From contig JAHZIX010000034.1 of assembly GCA_022601195.1 (NCBI GenBank), forward strand, positions 18,504 through 82,503: a DNA stretch of 64,000 nucleotides, in the 5' to 3' direction. Each line of letters starts with the position of its first letter. The stretch's first letter is position 1. The notes beneath the pieces are model-generated. The model did no database searches, had not been told where the DNA came from, and saw nothing but the letters and a program-made list of their open reading frames with translations. Source of the stretch: Deltaproteobacteria bacterium. Lineage in GTDB: Bacteria > Acidobacteriota > Thermoanaerobaculia > Multivoradales > JAHZIX01. The translations under genes were made by a program, and so were the position numbers. Shown one piece after another: positions 8,376-55,467 of the stretch.

Positions 8376-11300
8376 GTGCCTTCAGAGAGCCTCTATTTCA
8401 GAGGCGCCTCCTCAGGTCCCCCGAGCCGTCACTCCCTGGTGGCGGGTGATTGGAGTCATGGTCATCGGCAAGAGGCTCAGGGTATGAATCAGCAAGAGGT
8501 ACACACCGGCATGCGCAACTCAGACATTCGGCGTCGAGACCTGGCTCGGCAAGTTCGTGAAATGAGCCTGACCAGTCTCCTCGATCGCTTTCGGGAAGCC
8601 GGTGTTCAACACGCCTTCGTGGTCTTTGAGAACGGTCAGTTCACTCTCTCCCATCCCAAGCTACTGGAACCGCTCCGGGCCTTCATGGAGCTGTCCAACG
8701 ACTTTGCCCGGCACGAGGCGGTGTTCATCGGTACCGAGCCGGGACTGCCAACGCTTTTTTTCGCCTTCGTTCACGACACCCGTAGAGGTCTTTCTCAGGG
8801 AGGACTGCGATACCGCATGTACCAGAGCGTGGCAGAGGTTCTCGAGGATGGCCTCAGGCTCTCTCAGGGGATGACGCGCAAGAACGCTCTAGCTGGTCTC
8901 TGGTGGGGTGGCGGCAAAGGGATTCTTCCCATGACGGATCACATGACCGACCCTTCCTATTTGAAAGAGGGCAGCGACCAACGCCTGGAGGTTTTTCGAG
9001 GCTATGCCCGCTTCGTCGCCAGTCTAGGAGGGGTCTATTACACGGCGGAAGATGTCGGTACAAAGACTTCGGACATGGATGCCATGCTCTCCCAGAATCG
9101 GTTCCAAACTTGTGTCTCCAGTTCGGTGGGAGGGAGCGGAAACCCATCACCAGCCACCGCTCGAGGAGTCTTCTGGGCCATGCAGGCCGCTTGGAGGTTT
9201 CTCACCGGGGAAGAGCGCCTTCAGGGCGTAAAAGTGGCCGTGCAAGGCGCCGGTAATGTCGGCGGAGTCCTGATCGATCTCTTGGACCGAGCTGGAGCCG
9301 AGGTCTGGACCTGCGACGTCAACCAACCGGTGCTCGATGAGTTGGCCCAGCGCCGGCCCGGCGTCCATATCGTGCCGCCGGATGAGATCCTCGGTCTCGA
9401 AGTAGATATTCAGGCTCCTTGCGCCATCGGCGATCAGATCAACGTCCGGACGATCCCTCACCTGAAGGCCAGGCTAGTCTGCGGTGCCGCCAACAACATC
9501 CTCGGTGAGCCTGCGGACGCCGAACGCCTGCGGGAGCGAGGTATCGCCTTTGTGCCCGACTATGTTTGCAATCGCATGGGGATCACCAATTGCGCAGATG
9601 AGTGGCAAGGATATCTGGCAGAAGATGTGGAAATCGCTGCCCAGCGCCTTTACCCGGACACCTTGCGAGTGCTCAAGCACGCCCGCAATCTGGCGATTAG
9701 CACCACGGCTGCTGCCGATGAGCTCGCCGACATCGCTGCCAGTGAGCTTCACCCTTTGTTGGGGCACCGGGGGCGACGGATCATCGATCACTTGATGGCG
9801 AGTGGGTGGCATCGTGCCGGCGAACCCGTGGCCGAGAGAGGCAAGGGGGCTCAAGCAGAGGAAAGACCCAAGGGACCGAACCGGAACGCCTCCAAGAAGA
9901 CGGGCCACGGGACCGGAAGAGAGGTCATTTTTGACCCCGCCTTGGATGAAGCCGAGCAGAGGTTGCTGTGGAAGAGCGGCGGGGCCAAACAGCCAGCCAC
10001 CACGGCTGTGGCTGCCGCGCCTATTCCCACCGACTCCCGCCCCAGTCTCGACGCCTTCCTCTCCAACGTCTTGGCAGACGTCCGAGCTCGGGCTTTGGAA
10101 ATCGACAACGGCCAGCCCTGCCGGCGGGTCATGGGATCGGACCACGGCGGCCTGTCCCTCCAACTCGCCGTGGAACGATCTTTGCCCTACGAAAGAGAAG
10201 AGACGGGTCGGGCCGAGTTCTTTGAGATCTGTCGGGATCTCCACAATGAAAACGACGCGACGGTGCGCGAACACCTGCACAGCTTGGGCATTGGTTTTAG
10301 TCCTCGCGAGTGGCTCGATCCGATGGCCCGCAAGGGCTCTCAAGTGGTCACTCGGCTATTTTTCGCCCTCAAGGATGCTGGCTACTTGCGGTGGGAGAAG
10401 CGAGTCGGGCACCACTGCCCTCGCTGCCAGACGGTCCTGGTCTCCTCTGAGGTCAAACCGACCCTACTCAAGATCGACCGCCGCTACCGCATCGTCTTTG
10501 CCACCGGAGACGGCTCACAGCCGGGGCAAAAGGTCGAGGCCCTGACCTTCTTTCCGGAGCTCTTGGTGGGAGCGGTAGCCTTAGCCGTTCAGCCCCAAGG
10601 CAGGTTTGGCGAAACGGTAGGACAGACCGCGGTCAACCCGGTGACCAACGAGGACCTTCCCATCCTGGCGGTGGATTCCCTGGAAACAGAAGCGGCTTTC
10701 CTGGTCCCCTCCTACAGCCGGGGAGACGAGCGGATCGCCCGCGATCACGGCCTCCTGGCGGCTCCTCCCGTATTCGATGGAGAAGGGCAGGTCTTGTTCC
10801 CCAAAGCACCGGGACAGGCGGTCGAGCCCCTACCCCGCCGACAGGCGCGAGAGGCGGTGCTGGCCCGTCTGGGAGACCGAGCCACTGCCCTAGCGGGCGG
10901 TTGGGTGCTCAATACCCAGCGTTGCCGGCGCTGCGAAACCGTGGTTATCCCCTGCCATTCTGAGCAGCTCTTCGTCCATTTCGGCAGCGCCGTCGACACC
11001 TTGAGGCAAGCTCTGGAATCCGGAGCCGTGACCTTTAGCCACCCGCGCTGGCGAACCGCTGTCGAAGGTTACCTGGACAACCTCGAGCCCCTCTGCATTT
11101 CCCGCCAGCAATGGTGGGGCAACCGAATGCCAGAGGGCACCGAGGAGGTCTTTTCAACTTGGTTTTCTCTCATCGCTTGGTCTCTTCAGGGAGTCGGCTG
11201 GCCCCAGCAGGGAATGCCCGAGCCGGTGGACGAAGTCTTTGTCGACCCGGATCATCTCCTGCGCTGGGTAATTCCTAGCCAACTGGCGTCTCTCGCCCTA

Positions 11301-12227
11301 ACGGGCCGACCGGTCTTCCGACGCATCGCCGTACACGGTGCATTGCACTTAGCGGATCGCTGGCTGCAGCCGATCTCCGGCCAGCCGGCGGACGAACCGG
11401 ATGAGGACCGATTCCTCTATCGTTCTCGCCTGCGCCCAATGCGCCGGCAATTGGGCAATGTGGTGGAGCCTGCCACACTGACTCGACGCTTCGGCACCGA
11501 TGCCCTCCGTCTCGGCTACTTGCTCTGCCTGGGAAGCGGTCGACCGGAAGTCGTCACTTTGGACGAGGGAGCCTTGAGGCGTGCACGACGTGCCCTGCAT
11601 CGGCTCACCGCGCAAATCAGTGGCCTCTATGGGCTTTCCCAGCGGGCTGGTCAAGAAGACCCTAGGCAGCAGCTCGCGGGACAGGCTGCCACGGCTCAAG
11701 TTCTCGATCACTGGATTCTCACCCGCTGTGAATTAGCTGTCGCAGGAGCCCAGAAGGACTACCAAGGGCTCCAACTCGCCAGTGCGGCTCGGCGCTTGGT
11801 GACCTTGGTAGAGGATCTCCGGCGCTACGGTCGCCTGGCCTCAGAGCGCATCGAAGCCGGAAAATCCGTGCCTGCCGTGCGGGCTACCCTCGGCTCTCTC
11901 ATTCCAATCCTTGGGGTTGGGTTCGGGCCCATCTGCCCTTTCACTTTCTCGAAACTCTCTACTTGGGCCCTCGACCGAGGTCTCGAAGCACCCCAGGGTC
12001 CTCAACCGGAAGCCTGGCTCGGGCAATTGGTGGAAGAGCTCTCCCGCCACTCCGGTACGGTTTGCCGTCTCAGCGCCCCGGAAGCTGCGGTGCGGGAGCT
12101 GCTGGCTCGCACCACGACGGAGCTGGTCGGCCTGAGTGGCTCCCAGGTGGAAGTGGTCGATGACGTCGACAGCCCCCACGTCTCCGTAGGACCCTGTCGA
12201 CTCGCCACGGTAAGTGAGTCCAGCTAG
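8376..12227 (+). CDS. Fusion protein: Leu/Phe/Val (Glu/Leu/Phe/Val family) amino-acid dehydrogenase domain plus a ValRS-like class I aaRS body lacking HIGH and KMSKS. The start codon is uncertain; internal Met codons occur near 8478-8510.
   Basis: Dehydrogenase motifs: GGLRYRMY, LSQGMTRKNALAGLWWGGGKG (Lys181, nt 8916-8918), YYTAEDVGT, VAVQGAGNVGG, APCAIG, CGAANN, FVPDYVCN. ValRS-like motifs: GSDHGG, TFFPE (TTRPET position), CISRQQWWGNRMP, FSTWFSL, LGNVVEP..FGTDALRLGYL, and an anticodon-domain-like DHWILTR. Confidence 0.75.
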   Translation: MPSESLYFRGASSGPPSRHSLVAGDWSHGHRQEAQGMNQQEVHTGMRNSDIRRRDLARQVREMSLTSLLDRFREAGVQHAFVVFENGQFTLSHPKLLEPLRAFMELSNDFARHEAVFIGTEPGLPTLFFAFVHDTRRGLSQGGLRYRMYQSVAEVLEDGLRLSQGMTRKNALAGLWWGGGKGILPMTDHMTDPSYLKEGSDQRLEVFRGYARFVASLGGVYYTAEDVGTKTSDMDAMLSQNRFQTCVSSSVGGSGNPSPATARGVFWAMQAAWRFLTGEERLQGVKVAVQGAGNVGGVLIDLLDRAGAEVWTCDVNQPVLDELAQRRPGVHIVPPDEILGLEVDIQAPCAIGDQINVRTIPHLKARLVCGAANNILGEPADAERLRERGIAFVPDYVCNRMGITNCADEWQGYLAEDVEIAAQRLYPDTLRVLKHARNLAISTTAAADELADIAASELHPLLGHRGRRIIDHLMASGWHRAGEPVAERGKGAQAEERPKGPNRNASKKTGHGTGREVIFDPALDEAEQRLLWKSGGAKQPATTAVAAAPIPTDSRPSLDAFLSNVLADVRARALEIDNGQPCRRVMGSDHGGLSLQLAVERSLPYEREETGRAEFFEICRDLHNENDATVREHLHSLGIGFSPREWLDPMARKGSQVVTRLFFALKDAGYLRWEKRVGHHCPRCQTVLVSSEVKPTLLKIDRRYRIVFATGDGSQPGQKVEALTFFPELLVGAVALAVQPQGRFGETVGQTAVNPVTNEDLPILAVDSLETEAAFLVPSYSRGDERIARDHGLLAAPPVFDGEGQVLFPKAPGQAVEPLPRRQAREAVLARLGDRATALAGGWVLNTQRCRRCETVVIPCHSEQLFVHFGSAVDTLRQALESGAVTFSHPRWRTAVEGYLDNLEPLCISRQQWWGNRMPEGTEEVFSTWFSLIAWSLQGVGWPQQGMPEPVDEVFVDPDHLLRWVIPSQLASLALTGRPVFRRIAVHGALHLADRWLQPISGQPADEPDEDRFLYRSRLRPMRRQLGNVVEPATLTRRFGTDALRLGYLLCLGSGRPEVVTLDEGALRRARRALHRLTAQISGLYGLSQRAGQEDPRQQLAGQAATAQVLDHWILTRCELAVAGAQKDYQGLQLASAARRLVTLVEDLRRYGRLASERIEAGKSVPAVRATLGSLIPILGVGFGPICPFTFSKLSTWALDRGLEAPQGPQPEAWLGQLVEELSRHSGTVCRLSAPEAAVRELLARTTTELVGLSGSQVEVVDDVDSPHVSVGPCRLATVSESS

Positions 12228-22309: not shown

Positions 22310-22570
22310 CTAGGCCCCTTCCACCAGATCCGCCTTGCGCAGCTCCAACTTCTCCACGAAGCGCTCTTCGATCTCGTAGACCCAGGAGCCGTGAAACGCG
22401 TTGAAATTGCGAATCTCGTCGGCCCGGGAGAGAGTGTCGGCCTTTTCCTTGAGCTCCTCTTCGGACTCATCCGGGGCAATCTCCACCCGGTCGACGGTGG
22501 AAAATCCCTGGATGCTCAAGTAAGTAATGAGTGCCGTCTTTCTCCGCTGTGGCGACGAGGTAGCCGGAGG
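22310..22570 (-). pseudogene. Displaced, frameshifted duplicate of the 3' end (last ~85 codons) of the DUF4340-like gene at 30631..31782; left direct repeat of the RT island
   Basis: Hand alignment of 22310-22570 against 30631-30887 gives about a dozen substitutions plus one 4-bp insertion (taag, ~22521-22524) that breaks the frame. Similarity starts exactly at the stop codon and ends at ..gtagccggagg. Confidence 0.8.
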
Positions 22571-22670
22571 AATTCTCGGGTCTCGACCCACACAATGAGC
22601 GTCATACCCGCAAAGTTAAAACCCATTAATTCATAAATAGAAATACACTAAATATTGAACTCGTGAGATC

Positions 22671-25600
22671 ATGGACACTTCAACCTTACTTCAAGGAGTA
22701 GTGCCTTTGACGATCGAGAGAGAGACGTTTCTCAACAGGCTCAGAGAAGGAGCAGACCTCCCGCGGGTCGCCGCGCAACTTGGGATGAAAGTAATTCGGC
22801 GTGGAACCGAGTCTACTGCGCTATGCCCGTTCCATAACGACCATCGCCCCTCGCTCCGATTCTTTCAAAATCAACGAGGAACTTGGGCCTACAAATGCTT
22901 TGCTTGCGATGCCTACGGGGACGCCTTCGACCTCGTCATGAAACTAGAGGGAACGGCATTCTGGCCGGCAGCAGAATGGTTGGCCCAATTCCAAGGTGTG
23001 CCTGTGCCACCTCGAAGGGTACAAGGGGAAGGGTCGCCACGAACCAGTTTGAGAATCCAAGGCCTCGAGACGGCCCTGGCGGTTTTTCGCTCCGAAACGA
23101 AAACTGAAGGAAAGCTGAGCGAGGCGGAAGCGGAAAGGCGGGGATTCTCAGCTGAGATTTTTCAGGCTCATGAAATCGCCGCAGCCCGGAAACACAAACT
23201 CAGTCGCCATCTCGCACGAAAGAACAAGTCAGCCGGCCACGAGTTAAGAGAGTTGCGCGCGGGGTTCGAGGCTGCGGGGCTCCTGGTTCGCCGCCGGAAC
23301 CGGGACGAAGAAACCCAAGAGCGGTTCGCCTTTGACAACCTAACGGATTTCTTCTGGGATGAAAGGCTTCTCTTCCCAATCCGAGATCACCGGGGGAACC
23401 TCGCGGGTTTCGCTGGACGAGCCCTTGGAGAAGCCTCCAAGCCGAAGTACCTCTACTCCAAGGGTTTCGAGAAAGGAAGGGTGATCTATGGGCTGGACCG
23501 GGTTTTTGCAGACCTTGAAGAAAGGCGGACGGCGGAGCGATCCCGGAAAGGGAAAAAGAGGCCCTGGACCCTAGACCTCTACCTCGTTGAAGGACTCTTC
23601 GATGTCTTGAGACTGAGGGAGCTGGGATTCCAATGTGGCGCGGTGCTCGGCAACAACCTGAGCGCGCACCAAGCTGAGTTAGTTTGCCAGGTGGTTACTG
23701 AGGTAGCGAGGAGCGGTGGCGTTCTAGCAATCCACGTTTTCTTCGACGGGGATGCTGCAGGTCGAAGAGGCGCAAGCCGTGCGCTGGTGGAGCTCTGGAA
23801 GAGCTTTCTCCGCAATGACCTTGCCTCCCTGGTAGATGTAGTTGCCCTCACGACGGAACACTTCCCGAAGAAAGATCCGGATGAGTTTCTTCGCGGTAGA
23901 ACCCGGAAACAAGCGAATGGAGACATATCCGGTCTGGTCGTGCCTGCAACTCAAGCCATTTTGGCGGATCTTCTCGACTCCCCAATCGTGGAGGTAGAGA
24001 GGCAGTGGAACGAGACAGCTCCACCGACTCAACAATGGGTCCTGCAAGGCTTTCTGGAGAAGCTTCCTCGTAAGAAGTGGCGCCAAGTTTTCCAGCGGTT
24101 TCGCCCGCTGGCTACGTCACTAGAGGCCGAGTCCAGCCAGGAGGTATCTTGGCAGAATAGAGTCCGAAGCTTCCTCGGAGTCAACGATCCCGAGGAATTC
24201 TCAGAGCTACCCGCCCAAACCGCCAGGATGTCCGCGGCGGTCCCCACTGAAGTTCTCGAACATAGCGACGAACAGCATCTAGTCCTCGCTCATCAGTTGG
24301 CGATGGCTAGCCGCCACCGGAGGGAGTTCCCTATCGACGAAGCGAGTTGGGAGCGACTGGGTACTGGCTTCGATGCCATAATTCCATTTTACAAGAGTCT
24401 CTTAGAGGACGGCCAAGCAAAAAGGCTGGAGCCTTACCTGGCAGTCTACCTACCCAAAGCGAGTGGGGACCTACGGCTTAAGGCCCTACCTTGCCCGGAG
24501 GACCTGACTCTCCAACAGTACATGCTCAACGAATTGTTGCGCACTTATCCGGAGGACTCAGAGCTTTCCGAGCACATTCCGGCAGTGAGATGGCAACAGG
24601 GACATCTGGTGACGACCGGGTGGAGAGACGGCGGCGAGTTCGGGCTCCGAGAAGGTGCTGTTAGTTTTGCCTACCAGGTCGACATGGATGCCCTAGAGGA
24701 GAGACTCAGGGCGGGCAAGCGAACCCTGTTTCGACCATTTTTTGAATGCTGGAAAGCCTATATTCATTTCCTCTCTCACGGCGTTACGCAATTCGAAGAG
24801 GATCCCCTATACGCACTTCGACTGGATATTCGTGGTTTCTATGACAACCTGCACAGGTCCATCGTCAATGATGCCATTCGGCAACCCCTACAGAAGGCCC
24901 TCAGCCGCGAAGGCTTCGATGCCAACTCCATGGCTCCTCTTTTCGGGAATTCCCATCGAAATCTAGCGTCAAGTTTGGACGAAACGGACCGATCGGCCGA
25001 TACCGATAGTAATGCAGCCGGCGACCGAGCTAACGCGATCGTCGACTGGCTCTGCGAGCAGAGCTTCCACTATCCGTACCGCGATCCCAGCAGCGGCAAG
25101 CAACTCCAGAGTCCACCGGACAGGGGACTTCCTCAAGGACCGGACCTCTCCGCCTATCTTGCAAACATCTCTCTATTCAAACTCGACCAAGCCGTAACCG
25201 AGGCCATCGAACTGCTGAACCAGCGACGAGCAGAACCGACGCAACAAGCGGCCTCCTTGAGTCACACCAGATTCGCATCTGCTGAGCGTCGAGACAAAGA
25301 GCAAGAAACCAGAACGACAAGAACAGCTCTCTACGCCCGCTACGTCGACGATTTAATTCTCATAGCCTGCCAGCCCGGGGAACTCGAGGAACTGCGCAGC
25401 TTGATCGAGCACAAGCTGAGTGAGATCGGCCTATCCTTGAGCCACAAAACGGACCCGCTCCCTCCGATGAGCCGTGGAGACCTGCGCCGTTGGCTCACCG
25501 ACCAAAGGAGTATGGGCGCCGAGTACGGGCCTGTGCCCGGACTCGACCCCTTGCAACTCCTGGCCACTCGTGGATGGGGTGATAGCGGTCTGGAGTTGGA

Positions 25601-28600
25601 CCGGGGAACGGCCCTCCAACTGCTTCATGGCCAAAGTCTTCACGACCTCGAGAAAGCGCCCCAACAAGTCGAAGACTCTATTGCCTTGGCTCGCCAGGCA
25701 GAACTGCGACCAGGAGACGAAGCCGTCGCAGCCAAACTCCTTTGGTTAACTGCAGCCAGCCGAGGAATCGAAGATACAGAGCCGGAGCTACTGGCCCGCC
25801 AAATCAAGGCAAAGTGGCAGGAGTCCAACCCTGCCACGGCTCGAGAGCTTGCCCTGGGAGTTGAGGAACGCTTGATAGAGGAGGAGTTTCAAAGGGCTTG
25901 GCCGGTTCTAGCTTGGCTCGAAGGCCTCATGCTAGCCCTCCGGAGTCGCATGGACCGAAATCTCAAGGCAAGTTCCGAGGAGAAGAAGTCCCTGTCTCGT
26001 CTCCGCGAATCTCTTGCCCGAAAGGTCCAGGAGGGCCTATGTCCAGCCCTGGTCTCACTAGACACCGACCCAAAGCCCTTCGCTCATCAAAAGGCGGCTT
26101 GGTGTTGGGCTCTTCTGAAAGCCGCTGCTGAAGTGGTGGACCCGAAAGACGGCAGCGTGGGATTGAACCAAATGGCGTTACCCTCGCATGAGCTGCACAA
26201 GTCCCCTTTCCTATTCCGACTAGCTTGCTCCTTACATCAACTCTTTCCGATCTCCGACTTTCTCGGGCCTCTCAGATTCCAACCTGGGCCAAACCACAAG
26301 AGCAACGAACATGGGTTGGCCGAGCTGAGGTATTTCCATGAAGCCGTTGCCCGGCTGAGCCGAGGGGAGCTCGACGCTGGCAGGGACGACGCGACTCCCC
26401 TAGACCCCCTCCAGCCCATGGTGTCTTTTCTCTCGAATACCTACAGGGCCAGCGATCCAATAGCCACCGAACTACTGGAGAGCATCCGTTCGTGGCTCCC
26501 TGACCAAGAAGGTGAGGCCCCGAAAGGGAGTGAAGGCTCAACAACGCCCCAGCTGCTGGCCCTTTCTGCCTTTGTCAATGCCGCTGGTAGTCGGACTCCC
26601 CAGTTGTTGTTTCGAAGGAGCTGCTTTCACTCAGTAATACTCGAGACGCACGGATTTGAGGGAGCCAAATTTCTACCAGTGCCTCAGGGAGTGGCCTATC
26701 CTGGCTTACTCGCCATCCAAGAGCAGCGATTGATCGCTTTCCTGTTCGGCCAAGAAGATATCCCCAATAGGTCCGCTTCTGGGCCACCCACATGCCTGAC
26801 CTCGGACTTTCGGCCACGGGAACTCAGGTGGAAAACCAGTGCCAACTCGGGTTTGAATCAACCCCATTGGGACGCTTACGAGACAGATTTGGGCGCCTGG
26901 CGCCTGAGGGAACATGCCGAGATTCCGTTGGTACGCAGAGAGGACCAAGAGAAGGTCCAGGTCCTCACTGAAATTGGTGCGGCTTTCAAGGCTCTAGCAC
27001 GGGGCCAGCAAGACTCTCAGGGCCGGGAACCTGTCCCATCCGCAGCCCACCTACTGAGGCGGCAGCGAATCGACACCGACCAGGGAAGCGAGTGGTCGTT
27101 CCTTGGCTTCGGGCTTCGCCAGGAGGATCTTGGCTACCAGGCCTTCGTAGTGCAAAAGAACTCCGGGAGTTTACTGGCGGAGCCTGTTCCCGCGTCCGGT
27201 GCAGCCCTATGGCGCCTCGGAGTCGCCCTAGGAAACCTTCACCTCGCTTACGATCCCAAATTGGCCGACCCTGCCCACCGACTCAGTGCGAAAGCGCTCG
27301 TTCTGGCACCGCATCAAGATCCAGCCGTGGAGGCCGTCGTGCGCACATCATTAGCCCGACTGGTAGGAGCCTATGCCCCCCTAGGCCCCCTTTACTACTC
27401 ACCTGACGACGCACCTGGCGACAAATTGCCGCAGTCCATCTCCCGAACCCTGAATAGACTGAGTGCATTCAAGCGGGCCTTCGAGGCCAAGGAGACAAAC
27501 CAGACTTTGGCCTTCGCCCTGGCGATCTTCTTCGAGGGCCGGATAGACCGAGAAATCATCCGCCAACAGGAGCTTGAGGTTCGCCAAGGTGGCGCAGCCT
27601 TGGGATTGTTGAAAGCAGTCCGCCACTTGATCGGCGTCGACGCCAAACTCAACGAGGCTCTGCCGCCCCTCCCTTCCCTCCCCAGTTGGTTCCCGAAACG
27701 GCGGCCCGCCCGTGCCTGGCTCGCCATCGCCCAGCGCCTCCGTCAGCTGCCGAAAATCGCTGATCAGGACTTCCTAGAATTCGCCATGGCAGGGTATCGG
27801 CTCCTAGGCCTCCAAGAGCTTCTTCGAGCACAGGCCCTAGAGAGATGGACCACCTTGCCCTCGTCATGGAAGGCCGAGGCCAACTGGAGCCTGGACCTGT
27901 CATTTTGGGGCGTCAACGAAGGAGCCATCCTGGTCGACGATGAGTCCCTGACATCTCCCCTCGACCTCCTTGTTGACTTAGAAGAGCGCTTCTCCCCCGC
28001 CCGCCTAGGAAGCTTGGAACGCATCACTCCCTTGGGCTGGCTGGCGTTGCTCGCAGCCCTCTCTGGAATGACTCCCAACAACGACCGACGGCAGCCACTC
28101 CCGGAGAATGCCGAGACCAAAGCTGTAGAAGGGACCCTGAAAGAGCTTGCATCTCTCCTCGCGGAGCCATGGCAGCTCGAGGAAGAACCGAGAAAGAAGA
28201 GCTTCACTCACCTGGCGAGAACTCTCAAAGGCAACAGTCTTCCAAACCAACCGAACCTGCGAAAGTTTTGCGAAGCTCTCGACTCTTTAGACCGAACACA
28301 AGGCTACAAAGTGCATATCGAAGAGTCGGACCGCCTAGATTCGCGCCCTCGGATCGGACTGGACTGGGAGCTTTTCTCTGACTCCTACGGCGCGAGGGGA
28401 CTTCCCTGCTATAGCCTTCGTCAGCTCCGGTTGGATCCAAGGAATCAGCAAGAAAACTGGGAGACCATTGACGCAGAAGCCGCGAAGTACCGCCTTCAAA
28501 GGCGTGCGAGCCTAACCATCCGAGAAGAGGAACTCGTCGGTGTGGGCTGGCTCTCCCAGGAGATGGCCCACCTGGCTGGGCTCGACAAAGAAGAAAAGAG

Positions 28601-30515
28601 TCAGGAGAACACCCTGGGGCACCCCACTCCACCCCCGGTTCCCTCCGCCGAAGCAGAGTTAACTCCCAAAGCGAAGAGCGATTTACCACCCAAGGAAGAG
28701 CCTCGCGATAAGGCACCTACGGAAGAGCCCCCTGTCCAGGATGAGCCAAGTGCTGACCCAGACTCGGAATCTGAGGGAATCCGGGAGCTACAGCTCAGAC
28801 AACGTGCGGGCTGGAAAACCAGAGGCCAGTCGAAACGACCCAATACCGCTCGAATTGCTTTTCTCCAATGGTCTGTCGAGGAGAGCTATCACCATCCGAT
28901 CTTTGATACCTGCAACAACCTGGAAGCCTGGAACCAACTGACGGAAGCTCGCCAAGAGGAACCGAGGGAGCAGAAAGATGCCAAGTGCGAGATTAAGGGA
29001 CACTTGAAAAAAAACAGAGATCTCCGGAAGAACCTCCGAGGACCTAGGCTCGAGGCTGGAGATTCGCCCAGGAAGCTCCGCAGCTGCGCCGAGCACCGTC
29101 GGCGCAAGATCCTGGCTTCAGCCCTAGAGGCCTGTCACACCTTCGGTGTAGACCTGCTGTTACTTCCTGAGTACGGCATCCGACCGGACACCGTTGACTG
29201 GTTGAAAAGAAGGCTACAGGCCACCACTCAAACCTCTGTATGGGCCGGGACCTATCGGCTGCCCCCTCAGTCGTCTCAAGAAATCGGCCGTAATTCTTCT
29301 TTCTTGCAAGAGCGGAGAGATTGGGAGTCTTGCTTGAGCGCGGTGATTCCGGACCTAAGAACTGGGGGAGAACCGAGAATTCTGCGACGCTCCAAGAAGT
29401 ATCCCGCTCAAGCGGTGAACGAGATCTTCAATCCCCACTCCGACATCATCAAACCCCTCTTTGATCAGAACATTGGGCGGCCCGTCTTCGACCCGCGTCG
29501 ATTCGTTATGGAGCTCATTTGCTCCGAGATCTTCCTGATCACCAGTCCGGCGAATTGGAGATTCCTAGCGGAGGCACTGGGGACATTGATGAGAAAATTC
29601 CGTTGGGATTCCAAAAGCCTAAAGAAAGCATATGAAGATGACGTGATTCAAGACGCAAGCGGCCTTGGAGACTACCTCTCGTACTACTCAAAGACTCAGT
29701 TTCCCAGACGATCGATCCTGCTCGTTCCCGCCATGACCCGGAGGGCCGTTGACTTTGCCGCGCTCGGACAAGCGAGCTACTTATCTGCTGGCATCACGAC
29801 GGTTTTCTGCAATGCGATAGGGAAAGAAGGTATCGGAAACAGCTGTTTTATCGGGCATGGCTGCTGGGACATCGAGGCAAGCAAGGTCCCAAAGAGCGTC
29901 TCTTCGCAAAATCCCTACCATGGTCTGACTCCCGGCATCTTTCGGCAACACGAAGAGGGGCGAGGCTCGCTTGGCAGCAAAGAGCAAGCTCTGGTGATCG
30001 CCGATGTAGATCCGCTGCATTCCATCACCGGCCAGCCGCGCCCCCAATCTCAACCGCCAGCCCTGGAGCTGGTGGCACACTTGCCGATCATCGAGTCTTG
30101 GAAAAAGCGCTACCAGCCCTCTGCGGGAAATCGGGACCGTGCCTCATGCACCTGCGGACGAATGGAATCGGCTGAACTCGATAACAGCAAGGGCTTCAAG
30201 ATAAAAGATCTGGTCGAACGGCTGGAACAGCTCAAAGACATTTCTTCCATCAAAGACAACGACCCGGGGAAGCTCGCGGAAGTCCTGCGAAGCCTCGCTC
30301 ATCGAGCAGGTCACCAGAATGGAGGCTGGTTGCAGAAGCGGGCTGACGCCTATGAGAAGAATCACTTGCAGCATCCGGTACCCTGGCCGCCACCGGTTGC
30401 CATTGACTGGCTTTGGGTCGATCTGGGTCAACCCGGTAACGCGGTTACCTACCCCAAAATCGAGGTTCCTCCTTACTCGAACGCAGCAGGAGAGATTTCG
30501 GAGGAAGAGGAATAG
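22671..30515 (+). CDS. Giant multidomain protein (2,614 aa): DnaG-type primase (zf-CHC2 + core + TOPRIM), reverse transcriptase, long helical region, nitrilase/CN-hydrolase domain
   Basis: Zinc finger [21 protein letters not shown] (nt 22824-22907). DnaG core [45 protein letters not shown] (E307) and [11 protein letters not shown] (D359/D361). RT motifs [37 protein letters not shown] (nt 25341-25352). CN-hydrolase triad candidates LLLLPEYG (E2167), SKKYPA (K2242/3), ELICSEIF (C2284, nt 29520-29522). Confidence 0.9.
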   Translation: [2614 protein letters not shown]

Positions 30516-30555: not shown

Positions 30556-30588
30556 GACCTACCCGGAACTCTAGGTCACGGGTAGGTC
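30556..30588. terminator. 10-bp perfect-stem hairpin between the convergent RT gene and DUF4340-like gene (possible bidirectional terminator)
   Basis: gacctacccg (30556-30565) pairs with cgggtaggtc (30579-30588), with a 13-nt loop. There is only a weak T-tract (tgcttgt) on the + strand. Confidence 0.35.
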
Positions 30589-30630: not shown

Positions 30631-30887
30631 CTAGGCCTCTTCCACCAGGTCCGCCTTGCGCAACCCCAGCTTCTCCACGAAGCGCTCCTCAATCTCGTAG
30701 ACCCAGGAGCCGTGAAACGCGTTGAAATTGCGAATCTCATCCGCTCGGGAGAGAGTGTCGGCCTTTTCCTTGAGCTCCTCTTCGGACTCATCCGGGGCAA
30801 TCTCCACGCGGTCGACGGTGGAAAATCCCTGGATGCTCAAGTAATGAGTGCCGTCTTTCTCGGCTGTGGCGACGAGGTAGCCGGAGG
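30631..30887. repeat. Right direct repeat of the RT island (functional 3' end of the DUF4340-like gene)
   Basis: See the pseudogene at 22310-22570. Roughly 95 percent identical by hand count, in the same orientation, 8.3 kb apart. Confidence 0.8.
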
Positions 30888-31782
30888 TGTCTTTGAGAGC
30901 CACCTCCAAGACCTGCTGAAAGTCGAGGCCCCGAACTTCCGGCGCATCCGCTGGGTACACCTGAGTGAACTCCAGACGACTCAAGGCGGATTTGAGATCC
31001 CCGATGGCAGTAGAGCTCTCCTTCTTTCCGGAGGGAACCTCGGCCAGTTTCAGGCCGAGAGAAATGCGTTCCGGCGCCGCTACCTCGGCCACCGCCGGTA
31101 GCTCTCCCTCCCCGGGAGCTGAAGGTACTGAGGGCTCAGCAGAGTCAGCTTCCCCCGCCGGTGCAGCAGGGATCTCCTCGAAGATCTCTTCCACCAGGAA
31201 GTCCGGCCCTTGGATTCGAGTGACCTCCGAGGCGGCGACGTCGACAATCTCTTTCTTCAAAAAGACATCCGCGCTGGTACTCAAACCGGGGCTGGACGAG
31301 GTGAGGTAGATCATCTCGTCATCCACATCGAGGCGCTGGGCGTAGACCCCACCTTCCTCGAAGCTCTTCCCCAGTCGCAAGCTCACCATCTGCTTGCCGC
31401 TGGTGTCGGTGAGGGTGACTGCAATGGTTTCCTCGCCCGCCGGCTCAATCTCCAGCTCCTCAGCGAGCTTTTCGCCCCGACCGACTTCTTTCTCCAAGCT
31501 AAGGTCGAGCAGCCCCTTGAGGAAACGGTTCACTTCCTCATTGCGAGCTCGGTAGCCGTCTTTCTCAGCAATGGTGAATGCCTCGCCGGACCGTTCCAGG
31601 GTCAGAGCCTCACCCCCCTTCTCGATGGCGATGGCAGCGACTTCCTCGGGATTGAGATTGGGCAAGAACTTTCTGCCTCGTTCGAAACGCTCGGCGCTTT
31701 GGGAAGCCCGGTAATAACTGAGCGCTGAGACCAGAATGAGCCCCAGGGCAACCAGGCCCAGGATCTGATTCACTTTTCTCAT
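30631..31782 (-). CDS. DUF4340-like protein, last gene of the GldA/F/G-like ABC operon
   Basis: N-terminal TM anchor (ILGLVALGLILVSALSYY), then the pattern V..I.IEKGGEALTLERSGEAFTIAEKDGYRA typical of DUF4340 proteins that follow gldG-like genes. The start is 5 nt from the stop of the upstream gene. Confidence 0.6.
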   Translation of the reverse strand: MRKVNQILGLVALGLILVSALSYYRASQSAERFERGRKFLPNLNPEEVAAIAIEKGGEALTLERSGEAFTIAEKDGYRARNEEVNRFLKGLLDLSLEKEVGRGEKLAEELEIEPAGEETIAVTLTDTSGKQMVSLRLGKSFEEGGVYAQRLDVDDEMIYLTSSSPGLSTSADVFLKKEIVDVAASEVTRIQGPDFLVEEIFEEIPAAPAGEADSAEPSVPSAPGEGELPAVAEVAAPERISLGLKLAEVPSGKKESSTAIGDLKSALSRLEFTQVYPADAPEVRGLDFQQVLEVALKDTSGYLVATAEKDGTHYLSIQGFSTVDRVEIAPDESEEELKEKADTLSRADEIRNFNAFHGSWVYEIEERFVEKLGLRKADLVEEA

Positions 31783-46700: not shown

Positions 46701-46849
46701 AGGTCCGCCTCCAGCAGAGCCTGAACCTGATGGGCCAAGTCCTCGTCTTCGGCGCAGGCGTGGGCTAGAAACTCCGCGACGGATTCTGCGGGAAGCTCCC
46801 GTGCGCTGTGAAACACGTCTTGAATCTGATGCCAGCGCTCCGGCGTCAT
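43793..46849 (-). CDS. Ser/Thr protein kinase with a TM segment and a long C-terminal TPR array (1,018 aa)
   Basis: Kinase motifs GRGGMGSVYLA, AVKIL, HRDLKPGNILV, DFSIAK, YASPEQ. TM segment LAAAVAAISLAALLGFVVLLV. At least 10 TPR-like units of the type ..LNNLG.L....G....AE.LY..AL. Confidence 0.85.
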   Translation of the reverse strand: MTPERWHQIQDVFHSARELPAESVAEFLAHACAEDEDLAHQVQALLEADLASANPLDRPVASLTGAAAVTVVDENLGQKMGSYRLERLLGRGGMGSVYLAVRADGAYLQQAAVKILRRGLDTDDFLHRFRQERQILAGLDHPHIAKLLDGGSTPGGVPFLVMEYVDGKPLHHYCDQLRLTLKQRLELFRKICRAVHVAHQNLVVHRDLKPGNILVTEEGEPKLLDFSIAKLLAPSSEEELAALTQQGTALMTPAYASPEQLRGEVISTASDVYSLGVVLFELLAGCRPGGQRSGDQRSGDGRPAKGVGHQGPLGVANRRESALPRWDTPVERLSTTVGRLAPPAREEVADKRRTEPNRLHRQLRGDLDNIVAMALRSEPQRRYSSADQMAKDLERHLAGHAVLASGDSWVYRGMKLLRRHRLAAAVAAISLAALLGFVVLLVESQRQALRHFERAESVSDLLVALFEIPDPGRARGNIVTARQILEDGVLKVRSELSDQPQAQADVEASMGRSFLNLGLLEEAEELLQHSLDLRRGLQGEDHSEVGTGLLRLSEVFEAQGRYPEAAETARKAVEVHRGGSGEGHEETAGSHLQLARVLDLQGNFQDADDEFRRGLSLARELGASRILASGLDDYAISLARRGQTDQAEDFYREALEILRGLYGGDHPEVALSLNNLGLLLKESDVEAAEELFREAEQMQRRLYPEGHLHLATTLSNLGLSLDQAGRLEESEAFYLEALEMQRKAYHGDHPRLATTLNNLAALYLDQGRREEAEDLYRQSLAMRQRTLGERHEEVAASLNNLGEILAATGRQEQARDLYVQALEITRSQLGEEHFQVAIVLNNLGGLAKASGDLAEAEELYERSLAVMTAALGEDHPRVGKAVHNLATVRWSLGEVEKAEQSFRRALEIFRRRLGEEHLDVGRVLASLAALRGRAGDAKECLDLAVQARDILHDKLAASSPWRLTVERSLGESLFQLNRYDEAKPHLELWYQGLLKTRGPDHPQVKEARKRLQALASPR

Positions 46850-50705: not shown

Positions 50706-51794
50706 TCAACCCAACACCACTCGGCACTGGGGAGGCGACAGCCGTTCTACGTGAATGGGTACGTCCAAGAATTGTTGGATGAGCCCAATCTGCGTGGTCG
50801 AGTGGCGAGACAGAGGGAGCGTCAGCATCGATCCCGCACCGGCCATGGCCATGGGAACGAGCAGTTGATCCGCCAGGTATTCACCAACGGGCACTCGAGC
50901 TTTGAGAAAGCGTTGCATGGCCTGCACTCCTCGCCCCACCACCGCTTCCGCCCGCACCCCCACCACCCCAAAACTAGAGATGACCTCGGTGACGACTTCC
51001 CCACCTAACTCCAGCAGGACGACATTGCCGGGACCGGCGACGTCGGCAAGCTCTTCCAAGTGAAGATTCTCCTGGGGCCAGCCGGTGCGTTTTTCCAAGT
51101 GCCGCAATTCACGCCTGCCGATGTGACCGGGAAGGTTTGCCACCAAAACCCGGCCTTGCCGACGGCCCACATCACCGACCTCCTCGAGGTCGATCCTGTT
51201 CAAGATTGGACTGGGCTCCACCTGTACCCGGATCTTGCCGCCACCGGCAGGATAGAAGCCGGCCCGCTCTAGCGTCGCCGAGACTCGGGGCCCCATGAGC
51301 TCCAAAGCCGGCAACAGCGATCTAGCAAGAAAGTCGAAGGGGGGAGCTGAGGGGTTGTGAGTCCCTCCCTCCAGCACCAACTCCGACGGGCCGCTGGCCA
51401 CCAGCAGGGCCGGCAATAACGCCTGGACCACCAAGGTCGTGCTGCCCGCGGTCCCCATGGCGTAGGAGTACCGCCCGGGAATCACTGGCCCCGGCTCGAA
51501 TAGGACTTCCGCAGATCCGAGATCGGCCCCCTGGACCTCGGCACGACAAATTTCCTGAGCGGCAACCAGAGCGGTCAGATGCTGCCGAAGGAGACCTGGT
51601 TTGCGGCGACCGGCGCGAATGTTGCGCACCCGAACCGCGTTTCCAGTCACCATGGAGAGAGCGAGAGAGGAGCGAAAGATCTGCCCGCCCCCCTCTCCCT
51701 CGGAACCATCTATTTCGATCCACTGCTGGGTCATCGCTTTCTCACTCGGCACGGCCTCAGCTGATACTCCTTTAGCTGGTACTGGCTCGGCCAA
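50706..51794 (-). CDS. rtcA: RNA 3'-terminal phosphate cyclase (TTG 51794, or more likely ATG 51734)
   Basis: IEIDGSEGEGGGQIFRSSLALSMVTG..VRNIRAGRRKPGLLRQHL is the RtcA N-terminal signature. The gene abuts the rtcB stop. Confidence 0.85.
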   Translation of the reverse strand: MAEPVPAKGVSAEAVPSEKAMTQQWIEIDGSEGEGGGQIFRSSLALSMVTGNAVRVRNIRAGRRKPGLLRQHLTALVAAQEICRAEVQGADLGSAEVLFEPGPVIPGRYSYAMGTAGSTTLVVQALLPALLVASGPSELVLEGGTHNPSAPPFDFLARSLLPALELMGPRVSATLERAGFYPAGGGKIRVQVEPSPILNRIDLEEVGDVGRRQGRVLVANLPGHIGRRELRHLEKRTGWPQENLHLEELADVAGPGNVVLLELGGEVVTEVISSFGVVGVRAEAVVGRGVQAMQRFLKARVPVGEYLADQLLVPMAMAGAGSMLTLPLSRHSTTQIGLIQQFLDVPIHVERLSPPQCRVVLG

Positions 51795-53342
51795 CTAATC
51801 ATCCGCCGGCGCCCCGTCCTTGATGACGAACCGAGCCTCCAGGCGGGCGACCTCCGAGGCGAGACCAGCGACTTTCACCGACCGTAAGACCTCATCGAAG
51901 TCCTTATAAGCAGCAGGAGCTTCGTCCCGCGGGTAGCGCCGGCAGTTGGTCAGGATGTCGCGCTCCTCGAAACTGCGATCGACTTCCTGCTGGTCGAGCT
52001 CTCGAAAGGCCCGACGTCGGCCAAGAGCCCTTCCGGCACCGTGGTTGACGCTGAAGCAAGACCTCTCGGCTCCCGCCTCCGCGGCCATCACGGCAGAGCC
52101 CGCTTGGGGATTCCCGGGAAGCAGAATCGGGTGCCCGGTTTCAGCAAACGGAGTCTCCTTCAACGCATGGTGACCCGCTGGAAAGGCTCGCGTCGCCCCT
52201 TTCCGGTGCACCCACATGGGCCGATTGTCGATCACTTCTTTGCGAGCGATGTTGTGGCTGATGAAGTACACCAGATGCCCCTGGACTCCGGGAATCACCT
52301 CCTGAAAGGCTTCCAGCACCAATGCGTTGATGAGCAGGTGGTTCACCGTCGCAAAGTTGGCACCCAGAGCCATGTCGTTGAGATAGGCATCCGCCTCCGG
52401 CGTCCCCAGAGGGGCATAGACCAGCTGCGGATCTCCTCCTGGAAGGGGAATATCCCAGTTGTCGAACTTCCCTTGCAGGGCCTTGAATTGCCCGGAAGCC
52501 AAGTCGTGACCGAAACCGCGAGACCCACAGTGGGACAGGAAGGCAGCATGGCCGTTCTCGAGGCCGAAGACTTTCGCCCGTTTGCGGGCGACGGAGTTTT
52601 CAGCCACTTTCACCACTTCACACTCACCGAAGTGATTCCCTCCACCGTAGGAACCGAGCTGGCTCATTTTTCCCCGAAAGCGACCTTCAGGAAAACGCGA
52701 GCGCAGCAGATCCAGCCGCTCTAACAGCGTCTCCACCGTTCCATCGTGCCCCTGGTGGGCCGAATCTTCACAGCGCAGGGCCCACTCCGGAGGAATTCCC
52801 AGCTGCTCACAAACCTCTTGGGAAGCCCCTTCCGTGACCACCTGGCTCCCCAGGTCCGGTAGCACCCGGCGAGCTTTCTTGACGTGGCGCTGCCCCCGAC
52901 CAGCACCGGTCGGCACCCGTTCGGCTATGGCATTGATCAGAGCCCGGCGCACCGGTCGATCCACCAGCTGGTCTGCCGGTAGGTCCAGCTGCAGCAAACT
53001 CATGGAGCATTTGATGTCCACCCCCACGGGGCCCGGGTAGATATGGCTCGGTGACGCCAGCACACAGCCTACGGGAGCCCCATAGCCACAGTGAGCATCG
53101 GGGTTGAGGACCAGCTCTTCCACCCCTGGGGCCAGGCGAGAGTTCTGTGCCTGCTGCAAACAGAGGTCATCGAAGCCCGCGCGGATCACCTCGGTACCAA
53201 TAACCGTAATGGGCTTCTTGGCGCCATCTTTCACCGGCAGCAGGGCTGTCGCCTCCCCGGTGGCGACAAAAGGACTGGCCGAGCTGTTTGCCGCTCGAAC
53301 ACTCGTGTTCTGAAAATCCGCTTTCTTGCTAGCCATCACCAA
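51795..53342 (-). CDS. rtcB: RNA-splicing ligase RtcB
   Basis: PDAHCGYGAPVG, GPVGVDIKC, GGGNHFGECEV, SHCGSRGFGH, NHGAGR: the RtcB metal- and GMP-binding motifs. Confidence 0.9.
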   Translation of the reverse strand: MVMASKKADFQNTSVRAANSSASPFVATGEATALLPVKDGAKKPITVIGTEVIRAGFDDLCLQQAQNSRLAPGVEELVLNPDAHCGYGAPVGCVLASPSHIYPGPVGVDIKCSMSLLQLDLPADQLVDRPVRRALINAIAERVPTGAGRGQRHVKKARRVLPDLGSQVVTEGASQEVCEQLGIPPEWALRCEDSAHQGHDGTVETLLERLDLLRSRFPEGRFRGKMSQLGSYGGGNHFGECEVVKVAENSVARKRAKVFGLENGHAAFLSHCGSRGFGHDLASGQFKALQGKFDNWDIPLPGGDPQLVYAPLGTPEADAYLNDMALGANFATVNHLLINALVLEAFQEVIPGVQGHLVYFISHNIARKEVIDNRPMWVHRKGATRAFPAGHHALKETPFAETGHPILLPGNPQAGSAVMAAEAGAERSCFSVNHGAGRALGRRRAFRELDQQEVDRSFEERDILTNCRRYPRDEAPAAYKDFDEVLRSVKVAGLASEVARLEARFVIKDGAPADD

Positions 53343-53403
53343 GCTCCCTCTATTCCTATGACTTCCTGGGTCAACTGAGTTCTATCAGCCCAAACGGCGG
53401 GCG

Positions 53404-53520: not shown

Positions 53521-53566
53521 GCCCGCCGCTGCCGGCAGCACCGGCCTCCCGATGCTGCAAATGGAA

Positions 53567-53889: not shown

Positions 53890-55467
53890 TCAAGCCGCCG
53901 AAGCCGTCAATTCAATCTCTCGAATCTGCTTCACCCAGTAATCGGCGCTGGAAGCCTCCAGAAAACCGGCCAGCAGCTTGAAGACCTGATCTGAAAAGCC
54001 ACCGATGTTGAGCACGTCTTGCCGATCCGTTGCCTGGGTCGTCCCGTAAGGCTGAATATCGATGCAGACTAGCTTGGCCTTGGGACAGCGCTGTTTGAGT
54101 ACCGCCCATTGCCGCAAGGTCTCGGTAGCTCCTTGCCGGTAGGGACTACTGGAGTCCAACCAGGACTCGTTGTCCGAAACGTAGACCACCAGATCCGCAT
54201 GAACCCTCTTCCTGTTGAGATAGGTCAGCGGTGCTGAGCAGTTGGTTCCTCCCCCGTTGAGAGCCGCCAACTTGGAGGCATTGGTCATCACCGGGTCTCC
54301 GGCTTTCAGACGCACCGGCAGCACCTGGCTGCCAAAGGGGAGGATTCCCGTTTTCGGGTTGCGCCGCAGAATCGCCGCGGCTACCAACCCGGCCACATCC
54401 ACACACCGAACAGCCGTGGTGGAACCGCGGCGGTGGCCGGTCACCGGGGAGTGCATGGACCCTGAGGCATCCGGAAAAACCCAGATCTTGCCGGGCAGTT
54501 CCGGCACGTGACTCAAAGACAATTCCAATGCGATCCTCAAGGCATCCTGAATCTCCCCTGGTACCCCGGGCGCCAGCGCCCCATAGGCGGCCAGCAACTG
54601 GTAGGGAAAGACCCGAGATTGCGCGATAGCTTGCGGGTCCTGCAGCCGCTGAGCGATCAACGAAGCCATCCCATCCTCCTCATAGACTCCATGACGGTGA
54701 AACGTGTTCAGGTTCATTCGGGTCATCTGCCAGGATGCCCGGGCGGCAATCTCTACCCAAGCGCTGCGATCCAGGCTCAGGGAAGTGAGCATCTGAAACG
54801 GCACGTCGGGAGAGGGTCGACCGTGGGGATTCTTTTTGTAGGCTTCGAACTCCCGAACGACTTCCGGCAAGGCTGCCGCGTCGTGGACCCGGCCGAGGAG
54901 ATACCCGTAGAGGGCCCGCCGACTCGCCGTCGCCGGCTTCGGGTGCACCATCTTGACGATATCTACCAGGGACGGATCCTTGCCCACGGAAGCCGTGAAG
55001 ATCTGCTCGTCGGAACGCCCCGCCAACCAATCCCTGACCAAGGCCTTGGGCAAAGATCCCAGAGACTTGCGCCCGACAACCCCGGAACGCAGGATCTGTA
55101 CGAAGTTGCGCAGCATCCGAGGATGGTCCACCACTCTCGGGAAAGTGAGCTTCAACAGCTCCCGGTCGCGCACCGCCAGGACCGCTAAGAGGAGCGCCGG
55201 TAGGTCCTTCATGAAGGCCTGACGCCGCGCATAAATGGCGGTGCGGGCGATGATCTCCGGCTCCACCTGGCGGCAGAGCTCGAGAACCTTCGCTAGCTGC
55301 TGGTCAGCGTTCGCGTAGTAGGTTGAGGCGAGGCAACCGGTAGCCGCATATTGCGCCAAGGCGTGTTCAGGGGAAAGCTCATAGGCGACGCCTCCGGCTT
55401 CGTTGACGGCCTCCGCCTTGGGAAGCAGGCGTCCGATGATCGACCTGAAGAGTTCTTTACTTGCCAT
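53890..55467 (-). CDS. rsr: Ro60-related protein (TROVE + vWA domains)
   Basis: N-terminal TROVE-like EAVNEAGGVAYELSPEHALAQYAATGCLASTYYA..QL..V, and C-terminal vWA/MIDAS-like VFPDASGSM..GGGTNCSAPL..VYVSDNESW. It sits in the canonical position next to Y-RNA-like elements and rtcBA. Confidence 0.85.
   Translation of the reverse strand: MASKELFRSIIGRLLPKAEAVNEAGGVAYELSPEHALAQYAATGCLASTYYANADQQLAKVLELCRQVEPEIIARTAIYARRQAFMKDLPALLLAVLAVRDRELLKLTFPRVVDHPRMLRNFVQILRSGVVGRKSLGSLPKALVRDWLAGRSDEQIFTASVGKDPSLVDIVKMVHPKPATASRRALYGYLLGRVHDAAALPEVVREFEAYKKNPHGRPSPDVPFQMLTSLSLDRSAWVEIAARASWQMTRMNLNTFHRHGVYEEDGMASLIAQRLQDPQAIAQSRVFPYQLLAAYGALAPGVPGEIQDALRIALELSLSHVPELPGKIWVFPDASGSMHSPVTGHRRGSTTAVRCVDVAGLVAAAILRRNPKTGILPFGSQVLPVRLKAGDPVMTNASKLAALNGGGTNCSAPLTYLNRKRVHADLVVYVSDNESWLDSSSPYRQGATETLRQWAVLKQRCPKAKLVCIDIQPYGTTQATDRQDVLNIGGFSDQVFKLLAGFLEASSADYWVKQIREIELTASAA

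Follow-up and report, generated by a model that had tools for sequence, protein, structure and literature searches.

A divergent UG29 protein uniting a DnaG-type primase, a reverse transcriptase and a predicted nitrilase, encoded on a single-gene insertion

Introduction

What kind of protein joins a DnaG-type primase, a reverse transcriptase (RT) and a nitrilase in one chain, how might it work, and how did its gene come to lie where it does? The question is raised by a stretch of 64,000 nucleotides (nt) from an Acidobacteriota genome deposited as Deltaproteobacteria bacterium (contig JAHZIX010000034.1, positions 18,504 to 82,503; this whole stretch is called the window and all positions are those within it), in which one open reading frame (ORF) on the forward strand, 22671..30515, encodes all three. 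An earlier note made from the letters alone had read the three modules in this order, with a helical middle region, a linker and a kinship to the DRT1 clade, and had proposed an undescribed defence-type RT system. Profile searches, AlphaFold2 (AF2) models compared through Foldseek, and PADLOC uphold the three modules as ordered there, together with the helical middle region, the linker and the DRT1 kinship. The architecture itself is that of UG29, catalogued since 2022 and present in PADLOC, and this copy is a divergent member of that known family.

Assignment to the UG29 family

The PADLOC model PDLC03767 RT_UG29 matches the protein over its full length (E=0, 1,523.7 bits, residues 21-2603 against profile positions 6-2278 of 2280), and the second-best RT model reaches 43 bits. 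RT_UG10 models score at most 35 bits and cover the palm only, and the Drt1a profile matches the RT core and nothing else (residues 679-917, 40.7 bits). UG29 was set out by Mestre et al. (NAR 2022, PMC9226505) as holding the largest UG/Abi RTs, of ~2,500 residues, placed in class 3 and built from a DnaG-type primase, an RT and a C-terminal carbon-nitrogen (C-N) hydrolase, with a long spacer of unspecified function between RT and hydrolase. The same source notes that Gao et al. 2020 had wrongly labelled UG29 as 'UG10', and reports for the group an enrichment in defence islands that no experiment has validated. A 2026 paper puts its nitrilases in a distinct monophyletic clade. The protein studied here has the full-length profile match, the CHC2 and Toprim primase, the long spacer, the RT palm motifs and the single chain of about 2,500 residues that mark the group; the C-terminal C-N hydrolase is recognised at the level of the fold only. 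It is thus with near certainty a UG29 family member and a class 3 UG/Abi RT. Since Mestre et al. had catalogued this architecture in 2022, the claim that it was undescribed was mistaken, and so was the placing of these RTs in class 1, UG1/DRT1, UG5 and UG29 all belonging to class 3 (PMC9226505). Within the family this copy stands apart in being at most 45% identical to any other cluster, in having Tyr and not Ser at position 952, and in lying outside a defence island.

Several better known systems resemble the protein in part. DRT1/UG1 (PDB 9YFD; Neville et al., NSMB 2026, PMC13275509), DRT5 and DRT11 (UG5) share with it a class 3 RT, a helical domain and a C-terminal nitrilase, and the likeness to the DRT1 type extends to a Glu-Lys-Glu-Cys tetrad, a conserved C-terminal tail, the single-gene make-up and a hydroxyl residue in a loop after the palm. 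DRT1, however, has ~1,229 residues and lacks a primase, whereas the UG29 protein is twice as long, carries a primase and has a spacer of ~1,000 residues, and its nitrilase belongs to a separate clade and is undetected by Pfam CN_hydrolase. With Drt1a covering the RT core only, and given the doubled length and the primase, membership of DRT1/UG1 was rejected. DRT7/UG10 likewise has an N-terminal primase fused to a UG/Abi RT and a large C-terminal accessory region, and it supplies an experimentally examined precedent for a primase and an RT working together, but its primase is of the archaeo-eukaryotic PriS type, unrelated to DnaG/Toprim, its RT is a class 1 enzyme with alpha-Rep, and there is no nitrilase; the DnaG/Toprim primase found here and the low RT_UG10 scores set this candidate aside as well.

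For the primase alone, the nearest company is that of UG6 and UG24 (cluster 192; PADLOC RTasDnaG-like), which have the same DnaG-like primase type, UG6 having a nitrilase too; in those systems the primase, and the UG6 nitrilase, are separate genes and UG24 has a phosphohydrolase, whereas here everything is in one chain. Housekeeping DnaG (TIGR01391) shares the zinc-binding domain, the RNA-polymerase core, the Toprim domain and all the catalytic motifs. Unlike it, the primase module here is fused to an RT, lies well below the equivalog cutoff of that model (residues 18-416, E=3.8e-44, 151.2 bits against 283.6) and comes without a detected DnaB-binding domain, the protein having no Pfam match to the C-terminal DnaB_bind domain, and on these grounds it was not taken for a housekeeping DnaG.

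The ORF is uninterrupted, as had been stated, running for 7,845 nt from an ATG and encoding 2,614 residues with no internal stop in its translation; the ORF listing, the translation and the full-length RT_UG29 match agree in making 22671..30515 the UG29 gene. The residues named beforehand (C52, H55, C76, C79, E307, D359, D361, D719, Y891-V-D-D894, E2167, K2242/K2243 and C2284) were each found at the position given. The true start is likely the TTG at 22707, giving 2,602 residues; it is preferred to the ATG at 22671 because an AAGGAG Shine-Dalgarno sequence (22693-22698) stands before it with an 8-nt spacer, because the database gene call of the protein also has 2,602 residues and begins there, and because of the N-terminal lengths of homologues, the first zinc ligand falling at residue 40 from the TTG and 52 from the ATG against a homologue median of 38. 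At 2,602-2,614 residues the protein is slightly longer than is typical, the family median being ~2,512.

The primase module

Conservation was read from alignments of 40 and 66 sequences, the members being 22-46% identical to the query. Across them the catalytic residues of all three enzymes are invariant or nearly so (C52/C76/C79, E307, D359, D361, D402, D404, D719, YVDD 891-894, K926, E2167, K2242, E2251 and C2284), so to judge by the alignments the catalytic residues are intact in all three predicted enzymes.

The primase opens with a CHC2 zinc-binding domain (residues 18-112, 22722..23006, forward strand, with C52/H55/C76/C79), recognised by Pfam Zn_ribbon_DnaG PF01807 at E=1e-14 and matching the PDB primases 1d0q and 2au3; its four zinc ligands are conserved in 64-65 of the 66 sequences. 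It is followed by the N-terminal subdomain of the DnaG RNA-polymerase core with its GFAGRA...PKYLYS motif (residues 155-277, 23133..23501, forward strand; Pfam DNAG_N PF08275, E=5.3e-11), in which R250 and Y260 are invariant and K259 nearly so. A profile of 40 family members matched PDB DnaG cores at 1e-26 to 7e-53, the best being 2au3 at E=6.7e-53. The Toprim domain (residues 303-406, 23577..23888, forward strand) is found by Pfam Toprim_2 (PF13155; residues 304-406, E=1.4e-5) and by Toprim_4, the two together spanning residues 303-406, and its five acidic residues E307, D359-x-D361 and D402-P-D404 are invariant (5/5). PADLOC RTasDnaG-like matches residues 32-376 at E=2.4e-47, which ties the module to the primases acting in trans with UG6 and UG24.

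Among the homologues, a 2,381-residue ORF of Planctomicrobium sp. SH527 (L008 10022-17167) has a match that begins at query residue 241, and this homologue may be one without the zinc-binding domain.

The reverse transcriptase and the loop after its palm

Fingers and palm of the RT take up residues ~593-930 (24447..25460, forward strand) and carry D719 (motif A), QG (821-823), YVDD 891-894 (motif C) and K926 (motif D); D719, YVDD and K926 are invariant in the 66 sequences. Pfam RVT_1 matches residues 794-925 at 27.6 bits, slightly below its gathering score of 29.6, and the RT is backed independently by PADLOC models (Drt1a, Drt2, Drt3a) and by NCBIfam DRT models. A PDB profile search matched the palm to Drt2, Drt3a, retron, group II intron and DRT1 (9yfd) chains, the match to 9yfd_A being confined to the palm at E=0.0088.

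Beyond the palm lies a flexible loop, residues 943-974 (25497..25592, forward strand), defined from the alignment and from an AF2 model in which these residues (model residues 9-40) have a predicted local distance difference test score (pLDDT) below 50. Within it Y952 (codon 25524-25526) is part of a motif R946-G-L-[AG]-x-[SY]-[VG]-P, 58 residues past YVDD. The position is Ser in 58 of the 66 sequences and Tyr in five including this protein, and a hydroxyl is present in 63 of 66. In DRT1 the priming residue S402 lies 77 residues past the catalytic aspartates, in a loop (382-478) that cryo-EM leaves unresolved (PMC13275509), and by positional analogy Y952 is a candidate protein-priming residue.

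The middle region and the C-terminal module

Between the RT and the C-terminal enzyme the AF2 model shows a mostly alpha-helical scaffold, residues 975-1974 (25593..28592, forward strand). The modelled segment, residues 935-2034, has a pLDDT of 70.6 and a predicted template modelling score (pTM) of 0.62. The earlier estimate of about 1,100 helical residues is broadly correct: ~1,000 are mostly helical, with two beta-containing subdomains predicted near residues 1333-1505 and 1879-1969. No Pfam family matches the middle region, and its best Foldseek matches in the PDB are weak, none with an E-value under 0.1, and are alpha-solenoid proteins. A Pro/Glu/Asp-rich linker follows (residues ~1975-2034, 28593..28772, forward strand), read from the translation and predicted to be disordered (AF2 pLDDT ~30).

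The next domain, residues ~2058-2480 (28842..30110, forward strand), is a divergent nitrilase-superfamily (C-N hydrolase) domain according to its AF2 model and Foldseek. The model of residues 2035-2614, built on a 19-sequence alignment, has a pLDDT of 78.1 and a pTM of 0.86, and the 15 PDB structures that Foldseek ranks highest for it are all nitrilase-superfamily enzymes, among them beta-ureidopropionase, Nit3, a Helicobacter C-N hydrolase, AmiF formamidases and a Rhodococcus nitrilase (best E=1.6e-4, probability 1.00). Profile methods are silent here: the searches that recovered CHC2, the DnaG core, Toprim and the RT as the earlier note had anticipated gave no Pfam CN_hydrolase match for the query, nor did 19 homologous C-termini yield one even at E<=10, and no nitrilase chain came back when the PDB was searched with profiles of the full-length and of the C-terminal alignments. 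The assignment is accepted at fold level, as a prediction from the model. The candidate tetrad E2167, K2242, E2251 and C2284 is invariant in both the 40- and the 66-sequence alignments, and the order of the strand ARIAFLQ, LLLLPE(2167), RRSK(2242)KYPAQAVNE(2251) and ELIC(2284)SE fits the superfamily pattern. A disordered insertion of ~60 residues follows the first strand.

When the whole library of 1.84 billion representatives was searched with a profile of the C-terminal module, 312 clusters were found at E<=1e-3. Among the 150 best-scoring proteins the module is always C-terminal and mostly in proteins of ~2,300-2,700 residues, the shorter matches looking like fragments. From the small number of clusters and this placement the nitrilase type appears largely restricted to this architecture.

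The chain closes with a conserved helical tail, residues 2481-2614 (30111..30512, forward strand), delimited from conservation and the model and ending PPPxAxDWLWVD...PxIxVP. Its D2579 is invariant, and the tail may have the part that the C-terminus plays in DRT1, where it forms a lid over the active site.

Breadth of the family and its variants

In a large protein database 77 related clusters were found, the closest of them 45% identical and almost all of 2,400-2,600 residues. A scan of one genome per species gave 59 UG29 loci, nearly all covering query residues ~17-2607. The loci span Verrucomicrobiota, Planctomycetota, Acidobacteriota, Binatia, Alpha-, Beta- and Gammaproteobacteria and Lachnospiraceae/Oscillospiraceae, and include isolates and complete chromosomes, for example Planctomicrobium sp. 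SH527 and Haloferula luteola. UG29 is rare yet spread over many phyla, and the fusion of primase, RT and nitrilase is ancestral to the family. A primase additionally acquired by this one protein, as had been supposed, does not fit a fusion shared by at least 59 species-level genomes, nor the association of the same primase type, as a separate gene, with UG6 and UG24 in Mestre et al.

Two relatives differ at the C-terminus. P0005 (L063 3185-9451; 2,088 residues) has a TIR_2 domain replacing the nitrilase and is 41% identical to the query (BLAST, alignment of 1,980 columns), to at least query residue ~1500; no nitrilase gene lies near its locus. P0076 (3,069 residues) has an AAA_16 ATPase in place of the nitrilase. 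Neither the TIR nor the ATPase variant was found in the accessible portion of the UG29 literature. Such swapping among nitrilase, TIR and ATPase at the C-terminus is what one expects of an effector module.

No neighbour gene is common family-wide when the flanking ORFs of 46 loci are clustered. Some subgroups have recurrent neighbours. A gene for a DEDD 3'-5' exonuclease of ~310 residues (RNase_T, PF00929) lies directly downstream at seven loci, six of them alphaproteobacterial and mostly sphingomonad (among them L011 7583-8551, L017 11243-12211, L018 17543-18472, L019, L020 and L057), and upstream at an eighth (L025 6810-7706); it is possibly an accessory component of a UG29 subclade, and the window has no such gene. 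At four Lachnospiraceae-type loci a gene with Schlafen AlbA_2 and HATPase_c_4 domains, in part with a winged helix-turn-helix, is directly downstream (L029 14930-16399, L039 17158-18627, L061 18527-20113 and L032 17140-17391). Tyrosine integrases occur near seven UG29 loci, and the closest homologue has PIN/RHH, PhdYeFM/YoeB, SymE, AbiEii-like and Uma2 genes as neighbours, an island rich in toxin-antitoxin genes; both observations put relatives in a defence setting.

A single-gene insertion beside a DUF4340 gene

The gene sits between two direct repeats, 101 nt before its start and 116 nt after its stop. The right copy, 30631..30887, is the 3' end of an intact DUF4340 gene (30631..31782, minus strand; Pfam DUF4340). 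The left copy, 22310..22570, is a decayed fragment of the 3' end of the same gene in minus-strand reading, with ~12 mismatches and a 4-nt insertion, which makes it a pseudogene piece. The copies are 93.9% identical over 261 nt (E=5.8e-111). In the ~8.06-kb insert the UG29 gene is the sole ORF of at least 150 residues, no integrase or transposase lies inside the insert, and the GC content over the gene is 0.56-0.59 against 0.59-0.63 in the flanking 2-kb windows. We read the locus as a single-gene insertion by which the gene arrived; a sole-ORF insert between 261-nt direct repeats, with GC slightly under that of the flanks, points to horizontal arrival. The route was most likely, we infer, a single-crossover recombination of circular or linear DNA from a related genome bearing the same piece of the host gene. 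The uninterrupted locus was sought by scanning genome and metagenome contigs with the DUF4340 neighbour, and no relative was found. In a repeat scan of 45 listed loci, those with less than 200 nt of flank being skipped, flanking repeats occur at four other UG29 loci, none of them tight around the gene.

The gene is preceded by an AT-rich 100-nt leader, 22571..22670 on the forward strand, presumed to be the promoter region, in which a scan for sigma-70-type promoter and terminator consensus found no match. In the 115-nt trailer, 41 nt past the stop, stands a perfect 10-bp GC-rich hairpin (GACCTACCCG...CGGGTAGGTC; 30556..30588, forward strand), terminator-like and without a T run, the region having a minimum free energy of -40.8 kcal/mol (z=-3.4).

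Upstream of the insertion are genes for a HEAT-repeat protein, a VWA protein, a chorismate mutase/prephenate dehydrogenase and an amine oxidase. Downstream on the opposite strand are the DUF4340 protein, a GldG-like ABC auxiliary protein, an ABC-2 permease and an ABC ATPase, and then a PF07638-type ECF (extracytoplasmic function) sigma factor. The type of this sigma factor and the taxa of the nearest homologues give no more than a hint of a source in the PVC group or Planctomycetota.

How the protein may work

A mechanism for UG29 can be proposed from characterised relatives. DRT1 and DRT5 synthesise DNA without a template and with protein priming, from Ser402 in DRT1 (PMC13275509). The covalent semirandom DNA gives rise to nitrilase tetramers and dormant filaments, active-site mutants in the RT or the nitrilase of DRT1 and DRT5 lose defence, and the phenotype is one of abortive infection. 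For DRT11 (UG5-large) RT and nitrilase suffice. In DRT7 (UG10) the fused archaeo-eukaryotic primase copies the poly(dT) made by the RT into a complementary strand (bioRxiv 10.64898/2026.02.16.706125).

By analogy with these systems the UG29 protein would be an abortive-infection phage-defence protein. Its RT would make DNA that is not genomic, probably without a template and starting from one of the protein's own hydroxyl side chains (candidate Y952, a Ser in most homologues), and this DNA would set the oligomeric state and activity of the nitrilase, the presumed toxic effector. The DnaG module would act on single-stranded DNA, being either the RT product, on which it would lay RNA, or phage replication intermediates, and would so add a second nucleic-acid step that is lacking in the primase-less DRT1 and DRT5. 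Taken as a whole, a scheme of abortive-infection defence in which RT-made DNA governs a nitrilase effector and the primase works on single-stranded DNA is held to be rather probable. A more specific form of it would make UG29 the first immune system with a DnaG-type primase, the RT making protein-linked template-free DNA from Y952, the primase synthesising RNA along it or along single-stranded DNA of the phage, and the RNA:DNA product, not DNA alone as in DRT1, switching the nitrilase on or off; this is doubtful.

Several points weigh against the scheme. The literature searched contained no experiment on a UG29 member, and DRT numbers have been given to UG17 (DRT10) and UG5 (DRT11) but none to UG29. 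None of ten flanking proteins scanned had a specific PADLOC match and the genes around the insertion are housekeeping genes, so that a local defence island was rejected and lends the scheme no support. The nitrilase assignment depends on a predicted structure whose template modelling scores (TM-scores) to nitrilase targets are modest, 0.33-0.54. The idea of the priming residue is a positional analogy only: S402 is reported as non-conserved in other class 3 DRTs (PMC13275509), and phmmer of residues 644-1010 against the PDB, meant to align the loop to DRT1, gave no 9yfd match. Possession of a complete primase would be just as consistent with a UG29 that, in contrast to DRT1, does without protein priming.

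That last point leads to the explanation in which DnaG makes RNA primers on a phage or cellular template, the RT extends them in a primer- and template-dependent manner and the nitrilase is a downstream effector, with no protein priming. In its favour, all the primase motifs including the template-recognition zinc finger are invariant, as would be expected if the module really primes de novo. Primase and RT are moreover a recurrent pair, since UG6 and UG24 have a primase of this type encoded by a gene of its own, and the non-conservation of the DRT1 priming serine points the same way. Yet the class 3 RTs that have been characterised (DRT1, DRT5S/L) work without a template and start from a protein side chain, and DRT7, the only characterised primase-RT defence fusion, has its primase working after the RT. 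Moreover the hydroxyl residue in the flexible post-palm loop of UG29 is kept in 63 of 66 sequences, and beside the gene here, with its leader of 100 nt and trailer of 115 nt, there is no conserved non-coding RNA or template candidate and no Rfam family near. Because DRT1 and DRT5 use neither template nor nucleic-acid primer and the DRT7 primase copies an RT product, a primase supplying primers for the RT, as the earlier note had suggested, is possible but not favoured, and the explanation built on it is regarded as unlikely.

The gene might instead serve the replication and mobility of a selfish element, be it a primase-RT replicon or a retro-mobile cassette, with the 261-nt repeats as its insertion footprint. 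Primase with polymerase is a typical pairing of a replicon initiator, and nothing but this gene is carried between the direct repeats. However, a duplication of 261 nt at 94% identity with a frameshifting indel resembles single-crossover recombination with related DNA and not a target-site duplication. Repeats at only four other loci of those scanned, none of them tight, and a single copy in the window also speak against such an element, and relatives lying in toxin-antitoxin and integrase islands look to be mobilised by other elements. A C-terminal module swapped among nitrilase, TIR and ATPase is an effector signature with no replication function, and the selfish-element reading is very improbable. 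That the ORF is an artefact, with three genes for primase, RT and nitrilase wrongly joined in assembly, or else a pseudogene in decay, is scarcely credible: no point in its support was found, the same collinear architecture recurs in 59 independent genome assemblies and 77 protein clusters, its presence in isolates and complete chromosomes excludes a chimera, and an open frame of 2,614 codons that keeps all the catalytic residues is incompatible with decay. The defence scheme, with RT-made DNA governing a nitrilase effector, is therefore the one preferred.

Other features of the window

Elsewhere in the window, on the minus strand, an RNA-repair operon runs from 50706 to 55467, with Rsr/Ro60 (TROVE and vWA_Ro60 domains, 53890..55467), two tandem YrlA Y-RNA-like genes (53564-53698 and 53400-53520; 71.5 and 72.2 bits), RtcB (51795..53342) and RtcA (50706..51794). 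A 1,283-residue ORF on the forward strand, 8376-12227, joins a Glu/Leu/Phe/Val dehydrogenase (residues 131-413) to a class I aminoacyl-tRNA synthetase core and anticodon-binding domain (residues 562-1194), and is either an unusual fusion or a run-on from an upstream GTG. Two Ser/Thr protein kinase-TPR proteins are encoded on the minus strand, at 43793-46849 (1,018 residues) and 57312-60710 (1,132 residues).

Significance

As the only known case of a DnaG primase, an RT and a nitrilase in one chain, UG29 is a natural system for studying primase-RT coupling in class 3. The member described here is a well-delimited single-gene cassette that could be cloned unaltered, and it supplies leads in the candidate priming residue Y952 and in a predicted catalytic tetrad to mutate, while the relatives that swap in a TIR domain or an AAA ATPase support the C-terminal module as the effector. 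Its insertion beside the DUF4340 gene suggests that the 8-kb gene moves between genomes as a single-gene unit, recombining by way of a short conserved piece of a host gene.

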